NCBI GenBank assembly: GCA_017647405.1
Contig: JAGCKR010000018.1
Coordinates: forward strand, 5,056-69,055
From: Alphaproteobacteria bacterium
GTDB lineage: Bacteria > Pseudomonadota > Alphaproteobacteria > CAAHEQ01 > UBA3637
Direction: 5' to 3'
Length of the DNA stretch: 64,000 nt
Below are positions 9,152-25,658 of this stretch, piece by piece; the first letter of the stretch is position 1; every line of letters begins with the position of its first letter. The position numbers and the translations under genes are program-made. The notes under the pieces are model-generated. The model was not told the origin of the DNA. It did no database searches and saw nothing but the letters and a program-made list of their open reading frames with translations.

Positions 9152-9949
9152 TTAGCGCACAAACATATTTTTAATTTTTAAATATATATCTGCAACTGTT
9201 GACTTTTTCTTATCAGGTGTTTCCTGTTTATTTTGCTGTTTTAAAAGAGTTTCATCTTTTTTGCTTAACAATAAGGCTTTTTTTCTATGTTGCAAAACTT
9301 CTTTTTTCGGAAGCTCCAAAATCTCACCTAACTGTTCACCATGTTTCCAAATGCCTATTAAAAGAGATCTGCCGGCATAGTAACCTTCCTCATTATCTTT
9401 AAAATAATCGCTCGTTCGCTGTTCAGTAGAGTCAACAAGTTCTTCCGTTAATGAACTTATCCCTTGTTTTTTCATTTCTGCTTGCATTAAACGGCCCCAA
9501 TGCTCGGCAAATTTTATTCCTTTTTCTGAATATTGCGCGGTAAATGAGGGAGCATTAATACAATCTAATTGTTCATTTTCAATCAAAGCCTCATCCAGTT
9601 TATTTTGCTGTTGTATCCTTTCAGCTTTTTCTGCCGCTTCTTTCAACCTGATCGGTTCTTGTTTTTTTTCATATTCCAAAAGAGCTGTTCGAGCCAGCTG
9701 TACACCCTCATCAAGCGTTGTATCTTTATTAATTTTAAACACACCCCCATTAAAGGTTGCCTGTATTTCATAATCTTTTTCTTTTTTGGCAATCTCAATC
9801 ATATTGGCAACAGTATCATGAATAGTATAATCACGTTCCCCCACATGATTTTCAAGCGGATCATAGATAATTAATTTGTTTTTTTCATCAAACCGATAAT
9901 GACGCCCTTCTTTTATTTTTTTCATATCAACACGTGCAAAATCAACCAT
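9152..9949 (-). CDS. Hypothetical protein (Lys/Glu-rich, coiled-coil-like middle)
   Basis: 265-aa ORF with no recognisable domain. Confidence 0.55.
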   Translation of the reverse strand: MVDFARVDMKKIKEGRHYRFDEKNKLIIYDPLENHVGERDYTIHDTVANMIEIAKKEKDYEIQATFNGGVFKINKDTTLDEGVQLARTALLEYEKKQEPIRLKEAAEKAERIQQQNKLDEALIENEQLDCINAPSFTAQYSEKGIKFAEHWGRLMQAEMKKQGISSLTEELVDSTEQRTSDYFKDNEEGYYAGRSLLIGIWKHGEQLGEILELPKKEVLQHRKKALLLSKKDETLLKQQNKQETPDKKKSTVADIYLKIKNMFVR

Positions 9950-10010
9950 CCCAACCTCCTTAAAAATATATTCTGTCAGAAAATGTTATTATGACTTATT
10001 TTTATTGTCA

Positions 10011-10213
10011 ACAAAAAAACCACCCTAACTGGCGGATTTTTCTCGCTTAAAAAGAATGAATTTTAAATGCCAAACAAGCTATCCTGCACTTGAACCACTC
10101 TTATAAACATCGTTTACTTAAAACACACTAAATCAATTCATTCATTCGCCGAACCCATCTAGCCCTCAGCCAATAAAAAAACCGCCCTAAATGGCGGCTT
10201 TTTTATTGGCTGG
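10011..10213. repeat. Degenerate palindrome (10011-10039), B-type unit and palindrome P2 (10168-10213): left-hand copy of the tRNA-Gln-associated repeat
   Basis: ...GGCGGATTTTTCTCGCTTAA...ATCCTGCACTTGAACC...CATTCGCCGAACCCATCTAGCCCTCAGCCAATAAAAAAACCGCCCTAAATGGCGGCTTTTTTATTGGCTGG aligns by eye with the units at 14490-14839. Confidence 0.6.
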
Positions 10214-10239
10214 AGAGGTCTGGTAATACACGGACTTTA

Positions 10240-10755
10240 TTATTTTACTTTCTGAATATATTTGGGTGGAATAACGCCACCTTTGATAACGATAAGATAG
10301 TAACGAATAAAAGCAAAACGCCATCCCTTTTCATCATCTAAAATAGTGTAATCATTCGCTGTAAAATCAATTTCAGTTAAATCAGAAATTTTATATAAGC
10401 CTTCATCATTTTTATTTTGAGGTTCTTTTTCCAACACAGAAGGACTCACATAAACGGCTTCTATCAACCCATCTTTTTTAAGGGCGGAAATATCAATTTT
10501 AAATAAATCTGATGTTTCTATAAATTTCCTTATGCTAGGTGTGTTTTGAGTGTGTTGCAGTGGTTCAATCAATAACCTAATGCCTCGGCTACGTCCGGCA
10601 AAGCAACTTTCCATCCACTTCACGATATCTGAATGTATCGTTTTTCCTGAACGTTTTATATAGTAATTAATATCTGCTTTTGGATTTTTGGCAAAAGACA
10701 GAATCCCTTCTGATAAAACATTATTCCTTTTTGCAACATAATGGTAAAGATACAT
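10240..10755 (-). CDS. Hypothetical protein (orphan cargo gene)
   Basis: 171-aa ORF with an AAAGGATG-type SD region upstream, terminated by palindrome P2. No domain recognised with confidence. Confidence 0.55.
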   Translation of the reverse strand: MYLYHYVAKRNNVLSEGILSFAKNPKADINYYIKRSGKTIHSDIVKWMESCFAGRSRGIRLLIEPLQHTQNTPSIRKFIETSDLFKIDISALKKDGLIEAVYVSPSVLEKEPQNKNDEGLYKISDLTEIDFTANDYTILDDEKGWRFAFIRYYLIVIKGGVIPPKYIQKVK

Positions 10756-10817
10756 ACTATTTCATCCTTTTTTGTTTTATGTTATACTTAAATATTATAA
10801 AAATCAACTATAATTAC

Positions 10818-11103
10818 CATCTGCAATCTCTGAGATAAAATTTTGACATTCCAAGACAGAAGCATTGTAAAATAAGGCTTTTTGGGATTTTAAGTCCGTG
10901 TAAGGCTGAAAAAGATGCATTTTGAAAAACACCGTACACGGACCAGAATAAGTGATTGTAAAATAAAGACTGCGCAAATAAAAACAATCCAGCGAATTGT
11001 TTTTATGCGTAAAGCAATGAAACACAATGAATTCAAGTGGCAACGCAAAATGAATTGATGTCGGAATTGAAGCTATTTTTAGCGACTTATCTGTTTTGGC
11101 TGG
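10818..11103. repeat. Repeat A, copy 1 (~286 bp)
   Basis: Aligns by eye with 14202-14489 over its full length and with 12819-12970 over its right part. I count only 3 substitutions versus copy 3 in the right ~140 bp. Confidence 0.75.
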
Positions 11104-11175
11104 AAACGATGTACGGTTTGCGAACCTTGTATCTTCTTATTTAGAATTCGATATTAGTTTATTCACTTCCAGTAC

Positions 11176-11715
11176 TTATAAGCTTTGATCTTTAGCATAC
11201 TTTGCCAACATAATAGCTTTTGCAACTTCACTTTGATGTTTAGCTATATCTTTTTGAGATTTGGTTATTTCTCCAGTAGATGAATTTCCTGTTTTACCTA
11301 ATGATTCTGGATTATAATCATAAGAATATAGAGTTGCTTTCATGAAACGTTCTTTATTGCTTGTAAGTGTCTCATGAATTGTTTTTCTTTCAATTTTTTT
11401 ATTTACATCTGCGCCACTTTTTATAAGAAAAGAAACTGTTTCCCAAGAATGGGGGGCGGCGGCATTTGCTAAAGGTGTATATCCTCTATGGTCTAATTCA
11501 TCTATATCTATAACTCCAGTATTTAAGAGTTGCTTCATTTTATTCTTGTCATTTTTGCGTGCTAAACTATGTATAAGCGGTGTAGGTTGATCATAAGTAT
11601 TAAGAATATTTGCTTGTTTTATAACTTCAGAATTTGTGTGCTCCATAATATAGGAAAATATTTCATCTGTAGAATTAATTGAAAAAGATATAGGATGAGA
11701 GTATTGTTTTTGCAT
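11176..11715 (-). CDS. Ankyrin-repeat protein
   Basis: ANK consensus stretches (TPLIHSLARKNDKNKMKQLLNTG; GYTPLANAA...SFLIKSGADVNKK). Confidence 0.8.
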   Translation of the reverse strand: MQKQYSHPISFSINSTDEIFSYIMEHTNSEVIKQANILNTYDQPTPLIHSLARKNDKNKMKQLLNTGVIDIDELDHRGYTPLANAAAPHSWETVSFLIKSGADVNKKIERKTIHETLTSNKERFMKATLYSYDYNPESLGKTGNSSTGEITKSQKDIAKHQSEVAKAIMLAKYAKDQSL

Positions 11716-11855
11716 TAAAAGAGGACGTTAAAATCATATCCTTCTTTATGAAGACTTATAACTGTTTCTAGATTATTATAGGTGATAGCCTTAATAAGTC
11801 TACACTCATTAGATTTTCTTTTAACTTGCGTTAGTTTATCGAGGACATTAGTCAT
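11715..11855 (-). CDS. 46-codon ORF with an ankyrin-like segment, stop overlapping the start of the downstream ankyrin gene (TAATG)
   Basis: MTNVLDKLTQVKRKSNECRLIKAITYNNLETVISLHKEGYDFNVLF. The AI..NNLE.V..L...G.D.N pattern is ANK-like. It may be a split N-terminus of 11176..11715. Confidence 0.35.
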   Translation of the reverse strand: MTNVLDKLTQVKRKSNECRLIKAITYNNLETVISLHKEGYDFNVLF

Positions 11856-12036
11856 ATTAAAATAACTCTATATAAAGTGATTACATGCATATTCCAAATC
11901 TATGGAGAAAAGTCAATAAAATATTACAATTTATAGCTAACCTTAGAAGCCTGTACGCAAATATAGAGTTTATTATTGCGTTAAGATATATTTTGTGGTA
12001 TATGTTTATAAGTGTAATTTATAATCAGTATTAAAA

Positions 12037-12534
12037 ATGTTAAGGTTTCAAAATTTAGTTATTAGAAAAGCGCAAATAACGGATGTTCCTCAATTGGTTT
12101 CTTGGTGGAACGATGGAAAAGTTATGGCGCATGCTGGTTTTCCAAACGGATTAGGTACAACTTCGGAAAAAGTAATATCTCTTCTACAAAAAGATACAGA
12201 GGATAGATGTCATTTTATAATTGAAATAGATAATGCTTCTGTAGGAGAAATGCATTATAAAAAAATAAAAGACTTTTATGTGGAAATTGGTATTAAGATT
12301 TGTGAACAAGATTTTCAAAATAAAGGATTTGGAAAAAAGATTTTATCTCTTTTTATTCAAGAGTTATTTCATAATAAATGTTATAAAATAATTCAGATTA
12401 ATGTCTCAAATGCAAACAATATTGCAAAACATGTGTATACACAGTTAGGGTTTAAAGAAAAATTTAAAGCCGCAGATCTATCTTATGTACAATATGAACT
12501 TGCTTTAGCTGATTTTGTTAGTTATTTAAGGTAA
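12037..12534 (+). CDS. GNAT family N-acetyltransferase
   Basis: Acetyl-CoA binding motif A (QNKGFGKKILSLFIQ) and typical ~165-aa length. Confidence 0.85.
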   Translation: MLRFQNLVIRKAQITDVPQLVSWWNDGKVMAHAGFPNGLGTTSEKVISLLQKDTEDRCHFIIEIDNASVGEMHYKKIKDFYVEIGIKICEQDFQNKGFGKKILSLFIQELFHNKCYKIIQINVSNANNIAKHVYTQLGFKEKFKAADLSYVQYELALADFVSYLR

Positions 12535-12818
12535 ATGTTTTATACAAGTAAAGCTTATGTTAATTTTAGCAGAAGATAAATGTTATCAAGCAGTTAGATT
12601 TGAATTATTAAATACAATATATACTTACTCAGTAAAAAAGATTGCATAAACATTTTTTATTAAATATTTTTTATTTAACCTATGCAAAAATTCGCAGAGG
12701 TTCATTTTTCTGCTCAAAAAAGGCTGAAATTTGCTAAGCTATTGAAAAATATAGAAGCAAGTTCGAAGATGTTGCAAAACAAGCCTTCAAAATATATTCA
12801 TCTTCGAACTAATTCAAA

Positions 12819-12970
12819 TGCTTGTAAAATAAAAACTGCGCAAATAAAAACAATCCAACAAATTGTTTTTATGCGTAAAGCAATGAGACACAATGAATTC
12901 AAGTGGCAACGCAAAATGAATTGATGTCGGAATTGAAGCTATTTCTAGCGACTTATCTGTTTTGCCTGGG
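12819..12970. repeat. Repeat A, copy 2 (right ~150 bp well conserved; sequence further left to ~12690 is only weakly similar)
   Basis: I count 3 substitutions versus copy 3 across GCTTGTAAAATAAA...GCGACTTATCTGTT. Confidence 0.7.
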
Positions 12971-13146
12971 CTACCATGGATTGTGAAATGACTTCGCACA
13001 TTTCATCGCGCGCTTATGCTTGCGACCGCCCAAAGGCGTCTCTCACTCGGATACAAATGAATCCTCGTTCACCGAACATTGGTTCTCGCCCGAGATACCA
13101 AACCAATAACCCCCCCCCCGATAAACGGGGGATTTTTATTGGCTGG
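12971..13146. repeat. Diverged B-type unit (B') ending in palindrome P3 (13103-13146)
   Basis: Same order of elements as 14490-14665: two hairpins, the conserved GCGCTTATGCTTG segment, a CGAAC-containing tRNA-like remnant, then CCAATAACCCCCCCCCCG-ATAAA-CGGGGGATTTTTATTGGCTGG. Confidence 0.5.
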
Positions 13147-13362
13147 ACTTTCTGTACAATATACAAACTACTTGGGATAGGTAAATGAGTATTTTTTAAG
13201 TCGCTCATTCAGTAAAATACAGCAAATGTAATTAAATCATAGTTTTAAACACGCCATAAATTAAATCAATTTCCGGAACTAAATTTAAAATTTAGCATTG
13301 CAATTTTCGGTTTTGTATGTTAGCTTGAAACGGAAGCCACTAAAATAAAAGGAGAATAACAG

Positions 13363-13974
13363 ATGTCTTTTGAATTGATAAATCCAACTCTTGAATACCA
13401 GGAATCTTTTTTAAGATTTGTGGATGAATTGGTGGAAGCTAAGGATCCGTTTTTTGGTCAATATACAAAATATGCCTCTTTCGATAAAAAACAATTGAAA
13501 GAAAATTTTTATTCCTATAAGGTGAAGCCTCTACTAGATGCCCAAGCCGGAATTGGTTTAAAAGAAGGACATGTACCAGACAGCACGTTATGGCTTGTGG
13601 ACACAAATACAAAAGACATTCTGGGGCGTTTTAGTATTCGCCACAGATTAACACCTGCCCTTAGCGAGTTTGGGGGGCATATTGGGTATGTTATTCGACC
13701 GTCTGCCAGAAAGCACGGTTATGCAAAAATTGGTTTGGATTTATCCTTGGACTATTGTCGTGAGAAACTGAGCCTGCCTGAAATTCTGGTAACTTGTGAT
13801 GCCAGAAATGAGGCCTCTTATCGGACAATTATTGGAAGAATGAACGAATGGGGCGGAAGAATTGAAACACCTTTAGCTTTAAAAGACTGTGATATTTTTA
13901 AATCCAATCCTTATCATCCCATTAATAAAAATAACATAGAGTTACGATTTTGGTTAAAAACAAATAAAAAATAA
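13363..13974 (+). CDS. GNAT-like acetyltransferase
   Basis: GHIGYVIRPSARKHGYAKIGLDLSLDY matches the GNAT motif A region. AAGGAG SD upstream. Confidence 0.7.
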   Translation: MSFELINPTLEYQESFLRFVDELVEAKDPFFGQYTKYASFDKKQLKENFYSYKVKPLLDAQAGIGLKEGHVPDSTLWLVDTNTKDILGRFSIRHRLTPALSEFGGHIGYVIRPSARKHGYAKIGLDLSLDYCREKLSLPEILVTCDARNEASYRTIIGRMNEWGGRIETPLALKDCDIFKSNPYHPINKNNIELRFWLKTNKK

Positions 13975-14201
13975 TTCAATATCTGTAAGTGATTATGGGG
14001 TGGGTTTTAAGTTTTTTTGGAGACAGTTATTTTTTTGTTGACTTTTTTCTAAAAATGATATAAGTTCATTTCATCAACACCTGATTAAAAGTTTGAAGTA
14101 TTTCTTTTTGTGTTTGTCAAAATAACCTTGACTTTATAAAAATCGAGGTTAGGTACATAAAAAAAACAATGTGCAACATCACATCAAACATAGTTCAAAG
14201 G

Positions 14202-14489
14202 CATCTTCCTCTCTCTGGGATAAAAATTTGACATCCCAAGACAGAAGTATTGAAAAATAAGGATTTTTTGAAAATAAAGTCCGTGTAGGGCTGAAAAACA
14301 GGCTTTTTGAAAAACGCTGTACACGGACCAGAATAAGTGCTTGTAAAATAAAGACTGCGCAAATAAAAACAATCCAGCGAATTGTTTTTATGCGTAAAGC
14401 AATGAGACACAATGAATTCAAGTGGCAACGCAAAATGAATTGATGTCGGAATTGAAGCTATTTCTAGCGACTTATCTGTTATCCCTAAA
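14202..14489. repeat. Repeat A, copy 3 (~288 bp)
   Basis: Full-length match to copy 1. It contains hairpins GTCCGTGTA...TACACGGAC and AAAAACAAT-CCAGCGA-ATTGTTTTT. Confidence 0.75.
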
Positions 14490-14839
14490 GGTGGCTGGAT
14501 TGTAAATTGCAAGCAATTTATCCTGCGCTTAGGCTTGAACCGTCCTTGCGGACGTCGTTCGCCTTCGGCTCACCGAACCAACTTCATTCCATTCGTTGGG
14601 CCGAACCAATCTATCCCCAGCCAATAAAAAAACCGCCCTAAATGGCGGCTTTTTTAACCGCTTAAGGTGGCTGGATTGTAAATTGCAAGCAATTTATCCT
14701 GCGCTTGCGCTTGGACCGTCCTTGCGGACGTCTACTTCGCTAACGCTCCGTGAACGAACCAACTACTCCCGTTGCTTCGAACCAGTTACTCTCAGCCAAT
14801 AAAAAAACCGCCCTAAATGGCGGCTTTTTTATTGGCTGG
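14490..14839. repeat. Two tandem B units (14490-14665, 14666-14839), each ending in a palindrome (P4 ~14618-14660, P5 14793-14839), abutting tRNA-Gln
   Basis: Both units start with GGTGGCTGGATT, which equals the first 12 nt (plus strand) of the tRNA-Gln gene at 14840. Both contain a degenerate inverted copy of the tRNA 3' half (14585-14623; 14768-14798). Confidence 0.75.
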
Positions 14840-14907
14840 GGTGGCTGGATTCGAACCAACGAATGGCGGAATCAGAATCCGCTGCCTTACCACTTGGCGA
14901 CACCCCA
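14833..14907 (-). tRNA. tRNA-Gln (anticodon CTG), CCA encoded
   Basis: The reverse complement TGGGGTGTCGCCAAGTGGTAAGGCAGCGGATTCTGATTCCGCCATTCGTTGGTTCGAATCCAGCCACCCCAGCCA folds as a cloverleaf. The anticodon loop is TTCTGAT. It closely resembles E. coli tRNA-Gln as I remember it. Confidence 0.9.
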
Positions 14908-25229: not shown

Positions 25230-25244
25230 TATCTATCGACGATG

Positions 25245-25320
25245 GCGGAATAGCTCAGATGGTAGAGCGGTGGAATCATAATCCATGTGTCGGGGGTTCG
25301 ATCCCCTCTTCCGCTACCAG
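25245..25320 (+). tRNA. tRNA with CAT anticodon (elongator Met or lysidine-type Ile2; not initiator-like), CCA encoded
   Basis: GGCGGAATAGCTCAGATGGTAGAGCGGTGGAATCATAATCCATGTGTCGGGGGTTCGATCCCCTCTTCCGCTACCA folds as a cloverleaf. The 1:72 position is paired (G-U) and the anticodon stem has no GGG/CCC run. Confidence 0.85.
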
Positions 25321-25329
25321 ATTAAAAAA

Positions 25330-25359
25330 GACTTTGTTTTTGAACAAAGTCTTTTTTTT
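25330..25359 (+). terminator. Intrinsic terminator after tRNA(CAT)
   Basis: GACTTTGTT (25330-25338) / AACAAAGTC (25343-25351), 4-nt loop, T8 run. Confidence 0.7.
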
Positions 25360-25397
25360 ATATTGAACAATAATCTTATAAAACATCTATCACTGAT

Positions 25398-25475
25398 GGC
25401 AAAAGAACTTAAAGGCAAGAGCGGTGGAATCATAATCCATGTGCCCGAGGGTTCGATCCCCTCTTGAAGCTACCA
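25398..25475 (+). pseudogene. Decayed tandem copy 1 of tRNA(CAT): 3' two-thirds retained, 5' acceptor/D-arm scrambled
   Basis: GGCAAAAGAACTTAAAGGCAAGAGCGGTGGAATCATAATCCATGTGCCCGAGGGTTCGATCCCCTCTTGAAGCTACCA. The acceptor strands no longer pair. It is followed by its own copy of the terminator. Confidence 0.6.
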
Positions 25476-25553
25476 GATTAAAAAAGACTTTGTTTTTGAA
25501 CAAGGTCTTTTTTTTATATTGAACAATAATCTTATAAAACATCTATCACTGAT

Positions 25554-25632
25554 GGCAAAAGAACTTAAAGGCAAGAGCGGTGGAATCATAATCCTAAGTG
25601 CCAAAGGGTTCGATCCCCTCTTGAAGCTACCA
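25554..25632 (+). pseudogene. Decayed tandem copy 2 of tRNA(CAT)
   Basis: Same as copy 1, with further changes (ATCCTAAGTGCCAAAGGGTTCGATCC). Confidence 0.6.
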
Positions 25633-25658
25633 GATTAAAGAAGATCTTCCTGATTATC

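Follow-up and report, generated by a model that had tools for sequence, protein, structure and literature searches.

Introduction

Among the closest described counterparts of the sequence reported here are the repetitive extragenic palindromic (REP) sequences and bacterial interspersed mosaic elements (BIMEs) with their REP-associated tyrosine transposases (RAYTs), and the palindrome-associated transposable elements (PATEs) derived from IS200/IS605. We analyzed a 64,000-nt stretch of an alphaproteobacterial genome, called the window below (the genome, G000, is about 90% complete). Behind a tRNA-Gln(CTG) gene in this window lies an array of units, named B units, in each of which a tRNA-Gln 3' half has its T-loop split by a hairpin module. 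The hairpins are part of a discrete, protein-less element of about 70–95 nt with four hairpins. The element is apparently undescribed; no description of it was found in the literature searched.

Like REP sequences, BIMEs and PATEs, the element is short, lacks a protein and consists of imperfect hairpins that would act on one DNA strand. Its structure is kept while its sequence drifts, and it often lies just past genes or terminators. It is inserted beside a fixed short sequence without target duplication (TTCG/AAT), has its outer hairpins (H0 and hairpin 1) at opposite ends, and in many copies starts hairpin 2 after GTAG or GTGG, which resembles the head of a REP. However, it has four hairpins instead of one or two, its target is the T-loop of tRNA copies, and copies of the tRNA 3' half, both direct and inverted, surround it. 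The Y1/RAYT domain PF01797 was not found in G000, G005 or G023, and only fragments were found in two relatives, G001 and G008.

Inserts in tRNA genes are known from Archaea. The non-canonical tRNA introns of Thermoproteales are short inserts at T- and D-loop positions 20/21, 56/57 and 59/60. Very similar inserts occur in tRNA genes of different identity; the mechanism of their spread is unknown and is thought to act at the level of DNA (PMC4090602). The element is likewise a short insert in T-loops and D-loops, with similar inserts across tRNA identities. It differs in its bacterial host, in its larger size with four hairpins and in occupying redundant copies rather than the working tRNA, and no bulge-helix-bulge motif was shown in it. 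The splicing endonuclease PF01974 was not found in 5 genomes, whereas archaeal controls were positive.

Integron attC sites are comparable in size (about 60–140 nt), also conserve a one-strand fold over sequence and also occur in arrays of small promoter-less cassettes. Unlike an integron, this locus has no IntI, attI or Pc, its cassette borders lie at the tRNA 3' end, and it has four separate hairpins in a T-loop instead of a single long, imperfect palindrome that bears R and L boxes. A further comparison is with tRNA-targeting integrative elements, namely T-loop sublocation integrases and arrays of the tycheposon type, in which tRNA genes seed islands (bioRxiv 10.1101/2020.12.28.424599). A word search of that paper found neither "hairpin" nor "palindrom", and it mentions no hairpin module, inverted tRNA half or split T-loop. 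Such tRNA-targeting integrative elements share with our locus the partial tRNA 3' copies stacked behind the tRNA and the tandem arrays of cargo-only remnants. However, they carry an integrase and leave an uninterrupted direct repeat of the tRNA, whereas here the T-loop is interrupted and no overlap is repeated.

Single-strand initiation (ssi) signals, such as the complementary-strand origins of phages G4 and St-1 and ssiA of RSF1010, are also about 100 nt long with several hairpins and act on one strand, as the element may do. They share mini-hairpin words with it, namely GCGAAAGC, GCGTTAGC and CCGAAGG (PMC13037366). Unlike ssi signals, the element lies within tRNA copies, and no link to a single-stranded replicon or a dedicated primase was seen in the neighborhoods examined.

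Results

The B units are tRNA-Gln 3' halves with a split T-loop

The 3' half, CCA end and terminator of the tRNA-Gln(CTG) gene are the template that is duplicated in the B units, and the resulting tRNA-Gln 3' halves are stacked behind the gene. In the direction of the tRNA, the order is tRNA-Gln(CTG), a two-way terminator palindrome, B-b, B-a and a sequence named the A repeat. B' comes 1.5 kb farther along, behind a GNAT gene. Read in the tRNA sense, each unit consists of a terminator palindrome, an inverted and diverged tRNA 3' half, the sense T-stem 5' strand with TTCG, an insert of 72–90 nt, and a remnant that starts with AAT and runs through the T-stem 3' strand into the acceptor 3' strand, which is partly or wholly present; the next terminator comes after it. 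The split falls at 57/58 in canonical tRNA numbering. This split T-loop, the main feature of B, had been missed in an earlier sequence-only reading of the locus. The parts of the array are as follows.

14833–14907, minus strand: genuine tRNA-Gln(CTG) (ARAGORN and the Rfam tRNA model)
14793–14839, unstranded: bidirectional terminator palindrome 3' of the tRNA (inverted repeat I8 and terminator scan)
14764–14792, minus strand: B-b, inverted diverged tRNA-Gln 3' half, S' (comparison with the tRNA; the layout recurs at other tRNAs)
14755–14763, minus strand: B-b, sense T-stem 5' strand with TTCG, the left part of the split T-loop
14678–14754, minus strand: B-b insert, 77 nt (match of 82.9 bits to the covariance model R1, described below, and folds), with H0 at 14731–14754, hairpin 2 at 14717–14730, linker stem (HL) at 14696–14716 and hairpin 1 at 14680–14695
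14666–14677, minus strand: B-b remnant with the same sequence as the tRNA at 14840–14851 (AAT of the T-loop, the 3' strand of the T-stem and 4 nt of acceptor strand)
14618–14656, unstranded: terminator palindrome that separates B-b from B-a (direct repeat D6, 100% identical to the copy at 14793)
14583–14617, minus strand: B-a, inverted tRNA 3' half
14574–14582, minus strand: B-a, sense T-stem 5' strand with TTCG
14502–14573, minus strand: B-a insert, 72 nt (R1 match of 79.2 bits), with H0 at 14557–14573, hairpin 2 at 14541–14554, HL at 14520–14540 and hairpin 1 at 14504–14519
14490–14501, minus strand: B-a remnant, derived from the T-loop, T-stem and acceptor strand of tRNA-Gln, with the A repeat next to it at 14335–14488
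13104–13146, unstranded: B' terminator palindrome (terminator scan), with the remnant of the inverted tRNA half at 13083–13103
13073–13082, minus strand: B', left half of the T-loop
12983–13072, minus strand: B' insert, 90 nt (R1 match of 61.5 bits and fold), with H0 at 13041–13072, hairpin 2 at 13027–13038, HL at 13005–13026 and hairpin 1 at 12985–13004
12970–12982, minus strand: B' remnant with diverged T-loop, T-stem and acceptor piece
10005–10220, minus strand: decayed fourth unit of the B type, at the distal end of the array (found with B as BLAST query against the genome), with intact terminator and degenerate insert

B-a and B-b form a 176-bp tandem pair. They are 83% alike overall and 94% alike over the hairpin part, and their terminators are identical. 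The arms of the palindrome at 14793–14839 contain the tRNA 3' end (CCAGCCAAT) and its inverted copy.

The sequence-only reading had described two hairpins, 1 and 2, that keep in register between B-a, B-b and B' and are joined by a conserved linker. Both hairpins are real and lie at equivalent positions in the three units, and the terminal palindromes do differ in their central stems as had been reported. However, each of the three units has four consecutive hairpins. The linker between hairpins 1 and 2 is present as described, but it also forms a stem of its own, and a fourth hairpin, H0, flanks hairpin 2 on the side away from the linker. H0 is usually interrupted by a GA/GA or GAA/GAA internal loop and capped by a GNNA loop. 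In the linker stem GTCC(C) pairs with (G)GGAY around a loop of 3 to about 14 nt, and in one subtype hairpin 1 has a tandem G-A mismatch (CGAG ... CGAG). When folded as RNA, the T-stem closes the hairpins. The bases ATCCTG/C beside hairpin 1 in the window copies resemble a T-DNA border or IncP nic site, but most copies of the family differ there and we take the likeness for a coincidence.

The stems are conserved by compensatory changes

The covariance model R1, which covers hairpins 1 and 2 and the linker stem between them, found 13 copies in this genome. Each copy with readable context immediately follows a tRNA (Gln, Glu, Pro, Gly, Thr or Lys), and its flanks bear the sequence of that local tRNA; three of the 13 are at the start of contig C41. 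Among 100 relatives, R1 found about 245 copies, and 52 of 101 genomes were carriers. Carriers included 49 of the 60 genomes of the same family and 2 outside it; the other 11 family genomes had no match, and the copy number ranged from 0 to 15 per genome. When one genome was sampled from each of about 150 alphaproteobacterial families, one further carrier was found, with the same architecture behind tRNA-Arg.

An exact-pattern scan of the GTDB species genomes gave matches only in metagenome-assembled genomes titled "Alphaproteobacteria bacterium", several of them from animal or human gut, together with chance matches in GC-rich taxa. The viral contigs searched gave only weak, GC-rich chance matches. 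In an Rfam search of the region only tRNA reached threshold, and hits with E up to 5 added only terminator-like noise.

Covariation was analyzed on 126 aligned copies, 117 of them distinct. As had been claimed from three copies, structure is conserved over sequence. Pairing was seen in 86.6% of the cells compared with 71.2% in shuffles, and 0 of 500 shuffles reached 86.6%; the alignment was fitted to the model, which favors structure, and the copies are related, so these shuffle counts are not probabilities. Both sides had changed in 13 of the 15 pairs, with 284 double-change cells against 78 expected. When the partner columns were slid, at most 59% paired. At several positions of hairpin 1 four pair types occur, with UA, AU, GC and CG all found at the same positions. 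Independent pair types, together with stems and loops of variable length, would be hard to obtain without selection on pairing. The folding energies of single copies were unremarkable (z −1.2 to −4.6) and, whether calculated as RNA or DNA and for either strand, separated neither the copies from shuffles nor one strand from the other. Structure is supported by comparison between copies and not by energy.

The insertion point is fixed and the insert is discrete

In 55 units both junctions were placed by a script. The left flank ends in GG-TTCG and the right flank begins with AATCC, and the two flanks pair as the local T-stem. No bases are repeated across TTCG/insert/AAT and no target is duplicated. 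The host sequences derive from tRNAs for Gln, Glu, Pro, Gly, Lys, Thr, Ser, Leu and Arg. Of 39 loci, 28 have a co-oriented tRNA upstream, and none has one in the opposite orientation. In 17 of those 28 loci, the model match of the first unit begins 72–107 nt past the tRNA end.

Two loci show how discrete the insert is. In G009, a Gln-type unit (L013) and a Lys-type unit (L074) have inserts that are about 92% identical. The likeness extends only from GGTTCG to AATCC; the flanks are unrelated and each matches its own tRNA. In G013, two neighboring units have identical flanks and different inserts, and the switch falls exactly at TTCG. The best identity of an insert has a median of 0.91 within a tRNA type and 0.72 between types. 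Inserts at least 90% identical across two clearly different tRNA types were found only in the G009 pair and in a few units with decayed or unassigned flanks. The insert has been transferred between tRNA types, though not frequently.

All hosts seen are spare copies with an intact tRNA next to them. In G045 and G042 (L083, L118), the spare copy is a full-length tRNA-Arg-like gene with the insert in its T-loop, an altered anticodon loop and no CCA. There, the order is a promoter-like TATAAG box, the tRNA-Arg-like gene, a short hairpin without T-run and the genuine tRNA-Arg(CCG). This operon-embedded form was found in 2 of 80 family genomes. In G056 and G046 (L080, L076), the same insert lies in the D-loop of a tRNA-Ser 5' fragment, at GGTTG/AA, ahead of the real tRNA-Ser. 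Decayed or truncated copies occur, and so do tandem identical ones.

The same T-loop position is used by other inserts. An unrelated second family is found in tRNA-Pro-derived units (L002, G000 contig C7 8480–9110; G000:C36:25416–25458), and was present in 10 of the 61 genomes searched. An insert of 150 nt behind tRNA-Lys lies there too. No split or large version of the element was found in this genome.

Separately, the window contains two decayed direct copies of almost the whole tRNA-Met(CAT) gene with its terminator at 25244–25644, with a period of 156. They have neither a hairpin insert nor an inverted copy, and plain tandem tRNA duplication thus takes place here too.

The hairpin loops follow DNA rules on one strand

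On the tRNA-sense strand, the H0 loops are GNNA in 44 of 44 cases and the hairpin 2 loops are GNNA or GNA in about 86 of 117. The GNA and GNNA loops are closed by C:G. Their third position shows no preference for purines, GNYA being more frequent than GNRA, and about 30 are C(GNA)G triloops. The words GCGNNAGC, GCGNAGC, CCGNNAGG and CCGNAGG occur 210 times on the tRNA-sense strand and 3 times on the opposite strand of 121 units, about 70 times the genome background. GCGNNAGC and GCGNAGC form extraordinarily stable DNA mini-hairpins (PMC13037366; PMC3201870), whose stability depends on the closing pair (PMC3201870). Such words occur in ssiA of RSF1010 and in the origins of the single-stranded phages G4, St-1 and alpha3, which depend on primase (PMC13037366). 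With these counts, the arrangement of ssi signals, several hairpins with GCGN(N)AGC or CCGN(N)AGG on one strand, is also present in the element.

The units of the window lie between terminators, a strong one preceding each, and no sigma-70-like promoter was predicted in them. The earlier reading had left the choice between a structured RNA and a folded-DNA recombination site. Because of the loop rules, the one-strand bias of the mini-hairpins and the position between terminators without a predicted promoter, folded DNA fits better than RNA. This is moderate evidence, drawn from sequence, that the tRNA-sense strand may act as folded single-stranded DNA.

We consider it unlikely that the element is instead a structured non-coding RNA on a tRNA scaffold. 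In such an RNA the T-stem would close a multi-hairpin junction, as it does in the RNA folds. It would arise when transcription reads through from the tRNA or covers both together, the enzymes of tRNA processing would trim it, and its hairpins would serve as a protein-binding site or a decoy. The element and its tRNA always share one strand, and the units end like a tRNA precursor, with the acceptor 3' strand, sometimes CCA, and then a terminator. The tRNA-Arg-like genes of G045 and G042, which follow a TATAAG box and have no T-run before the real tRNA-Arg, would suit such an RNA, as would the tRNA-Ser leader with the same insert. Covariation is strong, and in hairpin 2 G:U outnumbers A:C by 7 to 0. 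However, typical units, including all those of the window, lie behind a strong terminator without a predicted promoter, and the operon-embedded form was found only in the 2 genomes mentioned. The loops show no preference for GNRA and include many triloops of the DNA type, and no Rfam family matches. The copies also decay, vary in number between genomes and had no match in 11 of the family genomes. We also considered a tRNA-like molecule with its own acceptor stem, but in B-a, the Glu unit and the Gly unit the remnant finds no pairing partner in the 5' part of the inverted half, and the idea was rejected.

Gene islands end at the tRNA 3' end and not at the hairpins

Three small cassettes lie in the array, at 10214–11102 (a 171-aa open reading frame (ORF) without assigned identity), 11103–12975 (ankyrin and GNAT genes) and 13147–14488 (a GNAT gene). 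Cassettes and islands of this type end with the A repeat on the tRNA-proximal side and with a motif containing GTCCGTGTA on the distal side, and both ends are flanked by the 8-nt tRNA-Gln 3' end CCAGCCAA. The CCAGCCAA borders are at 10205, 11094, 13138 and 14832, all outside the hairpins; the border is degenerate at 12966 and absent at the B-a junction. Unlike the B units, the A-type islands, which are separate from them, do have the CCAGCCAA repeat. Island sites are a plain tRNA end (contig C35), the remnant side of a B unit (G023) or another island that directly abuts (window 11094). B units thus supply extra copies of the island target and are not crossover sites, which argues against the analogy with integron attC sites that the sequence-only reading had drawn. 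There is also no integrase at the array, and it is the tRNA-Gln 3' end rather than the hairpins that bounds the cassettes.

The A repeats themselves (10950–11102, 12816–12969 and 14335–14488) look like a terminator-type tRNA-Gln flank with an internal insertion of its own, 105 nt long. A without this piece was found on contig C35 of this genome and on public-run contigs (joint 10966>11072). These public-run contigs, which are short, also showed the ankyrin gene deleted, a different type of unit next to the tRNA and a single weak joint that links 12971 to 14668. Islands of the same type, 11–12 kb long, are found in G023 behind tRNA-Gln(TTG). At the far edge of the tRNA-Gln island in the window, the ORF at 9152–9949 (minus strand) has a weak match to the Thoeris inhibitor Tad4 (PF25186, E 1e-6).

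No recombinase gene was found at 7–16 kb of the window, and the four tyrosine recombinase genes of the genome are on other contigs or far from any unit. In relatives, the distal unit of some islands is preceded, at a distance of a few hundred bases, by a PF07508 recombinase fragment or a small resolvase gene (L035:12369–13037, L036:9822–10379 and L038, G005:C11:5025–5453). Five related resolvase genes elsewhere have no unit nearby. Searches for tyrosine recombinases, resolvases, IS110, Y1/RAYT, reverse transcriptase, TnpB and tRNA-splicing endonuclease gave no consistent partner.

That B is a recombination site of tRNA-linked islands, either an attP arm or an attC-like folded site whose hairpins a site-specific recombinase reads as cassettes enter or leave behind the tRNA, seems doubtful to us. 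Units do bound islands. G023 has the order tRNA-Gln(TTG), unit, 11.5 kb, unit, 12 kb, unit; contig C35 has a 3.5-kb island, and B' lies between two cassettes of the window. The recombinase sequences just described precede two distal G023 units and one G005 unit, an island of G001 encodes a 198-aa tyrosine recombinase, and structure is kept over sequence as in attC. Nevertheless, the islands end at CCAGCCAA, past a 12-nt remnant that parts CCAGCCAA from hairpin 1. The same islands are found with no B unit between them, at a plain tRNA end or abutting, and CCAGCCAA junctions regardless of B were partly seen. Units occur at many tRNAs without any cargo, and a T-loop split without repeated overlap or crossover dinucleotide is unlike the products of tyrosine and serine recombinases. 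The array lacks a recombinase in or beside it, and only 2 of 7 related resolvase genes adjoin a unit.

Discussion

Tentatively, we favor the reading that the hairpins belong to a miniature insertion element whose active form may be the folded single-stranded DNA of the tRNA-sense strand. The hairpins would be recognized by an enzyme encoded elsewhere, either a nuclease or transposase of the HUH type or a primase-like protein. The element would insert at T-loops in general. An insertion that hits a tRNA gene present only once would kill the cell, so survivors would be confined to insertions in spare copies. The usual spare copy would be a triplicated tRNA 3' half, with a sense half, the terminator palindrome, an inverted half, a sense half that holds the insert, and a terminator; rarely it would be a full tandem tRNA copy or a 5' fragment. 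This order is the one expected from a tandem inversion duplication by template switching at two hairpins, which may be the terminator and the anticodon or variable-arm region.

Flanked by direct repeats of the tRNA 3' end and the terminator, a finished unit could grow or shrink by unequal crossover. Such amplification and loss by direct repeats is indicated by tandem units that are identical (G007) and by truncated ones (G013, G011). In the window, unequal crossover would have given rise to B-a and B-b, and later decay to the unit at 10005–10220. The present copies are best read as mostly relics multiplied in this way.

Several observations weigh against a miniature insertion element. No enzyme for it was found; G000, at 90% completeness, has no Y1 transposase, IS110-type, TnpB or reverse transcriptase gene, and the resolvase genes adjoin units only sometimes. 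No pair of empty and filled forms of the same T-loop was found, and the short public-run contigs gave no clean empty site. The inserts that are nearly identical across tRNA types, being so few, do not appear to support recent movement. Rare illegitimate recombination at microhomology could also transplant the insert, as no sequence other than that at its boundaries is common to all tRNAs. An RNA could have GNNA loops and tandem G-A pairs too. The element never deviates from the orientation of the tRNA, and tRNA operons contain a few of the copies. Finally, the inverted tRNA half keeps its TTCGAAT T-loop in about 3 of 57 units, which the model does not explain. It often reads TTCTCAT, TTCTTAT or TTCTTCT instead (for example in L035 and L193), and the altered bases are the two on either side of the insertion point. 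Such changes may be a footprint, or selection may have acted against a second target.

An inert by-product is an improbable explanation, in which a single ancient T-loop insertion was spread by inverted and tandem duplication at terminator palindromes, with rare gene conversion or template switching at the shared T-loop sequence, and the hairpins were kept by descent only: this genome does have an insert-free tandem duplication of part of a tRNA (tRNA-Met), identical tandem units exist, no mobilizing enzyme was found and inserts mostly diverge along with the tRNA type, but neutral descent gives neither the excess of compensatory cells nor four pair types per stem position, and it leaves unexplained the 70-fold, one-strand enrichment of mini-hairpins across divergent copies and the varying stem lengths and loop sizes with pairing kept.

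We think a broader reading possible but on balance unlikely. In it, a bacterial mobile element would specifically recognize the nearly universal sequence of the tRNA elbow (T-loop GGTTCG^AAT, D-loop GGTTG^AA) and insert as folded single-stranded DNA. It would be the bacterial counterpart of the "transposing" tRNA introns of Thermoproteales, and it would give rise to the spare tRNA ends stacked behind tRNA genes, on which gene islands land in these gut Alphaproteobacteria.

For genome analysis, the units matter because they break assemblies, many of them lying at contig ends, and may pass for the tRNA fragments that integrases leave behind. They also offer a bacterial case with which the movement of archaeal tRNA introns can be compared. 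More than 200 divergent natural sequences follow the rules of DNA mini-hairpins on one strand, which points to an unrecognized process on single-stranded DNA, such as nicking, priming or transposition, in an abundant uncultured gut lineage. If the T-loop is truly targeted, the element would be a parasite of the most conserved sequence in biology that survives only in spare tRNA copies, and it would provide a concrete route to the origin of pseudo-tRNA stacks and tRNA-anchored islands.

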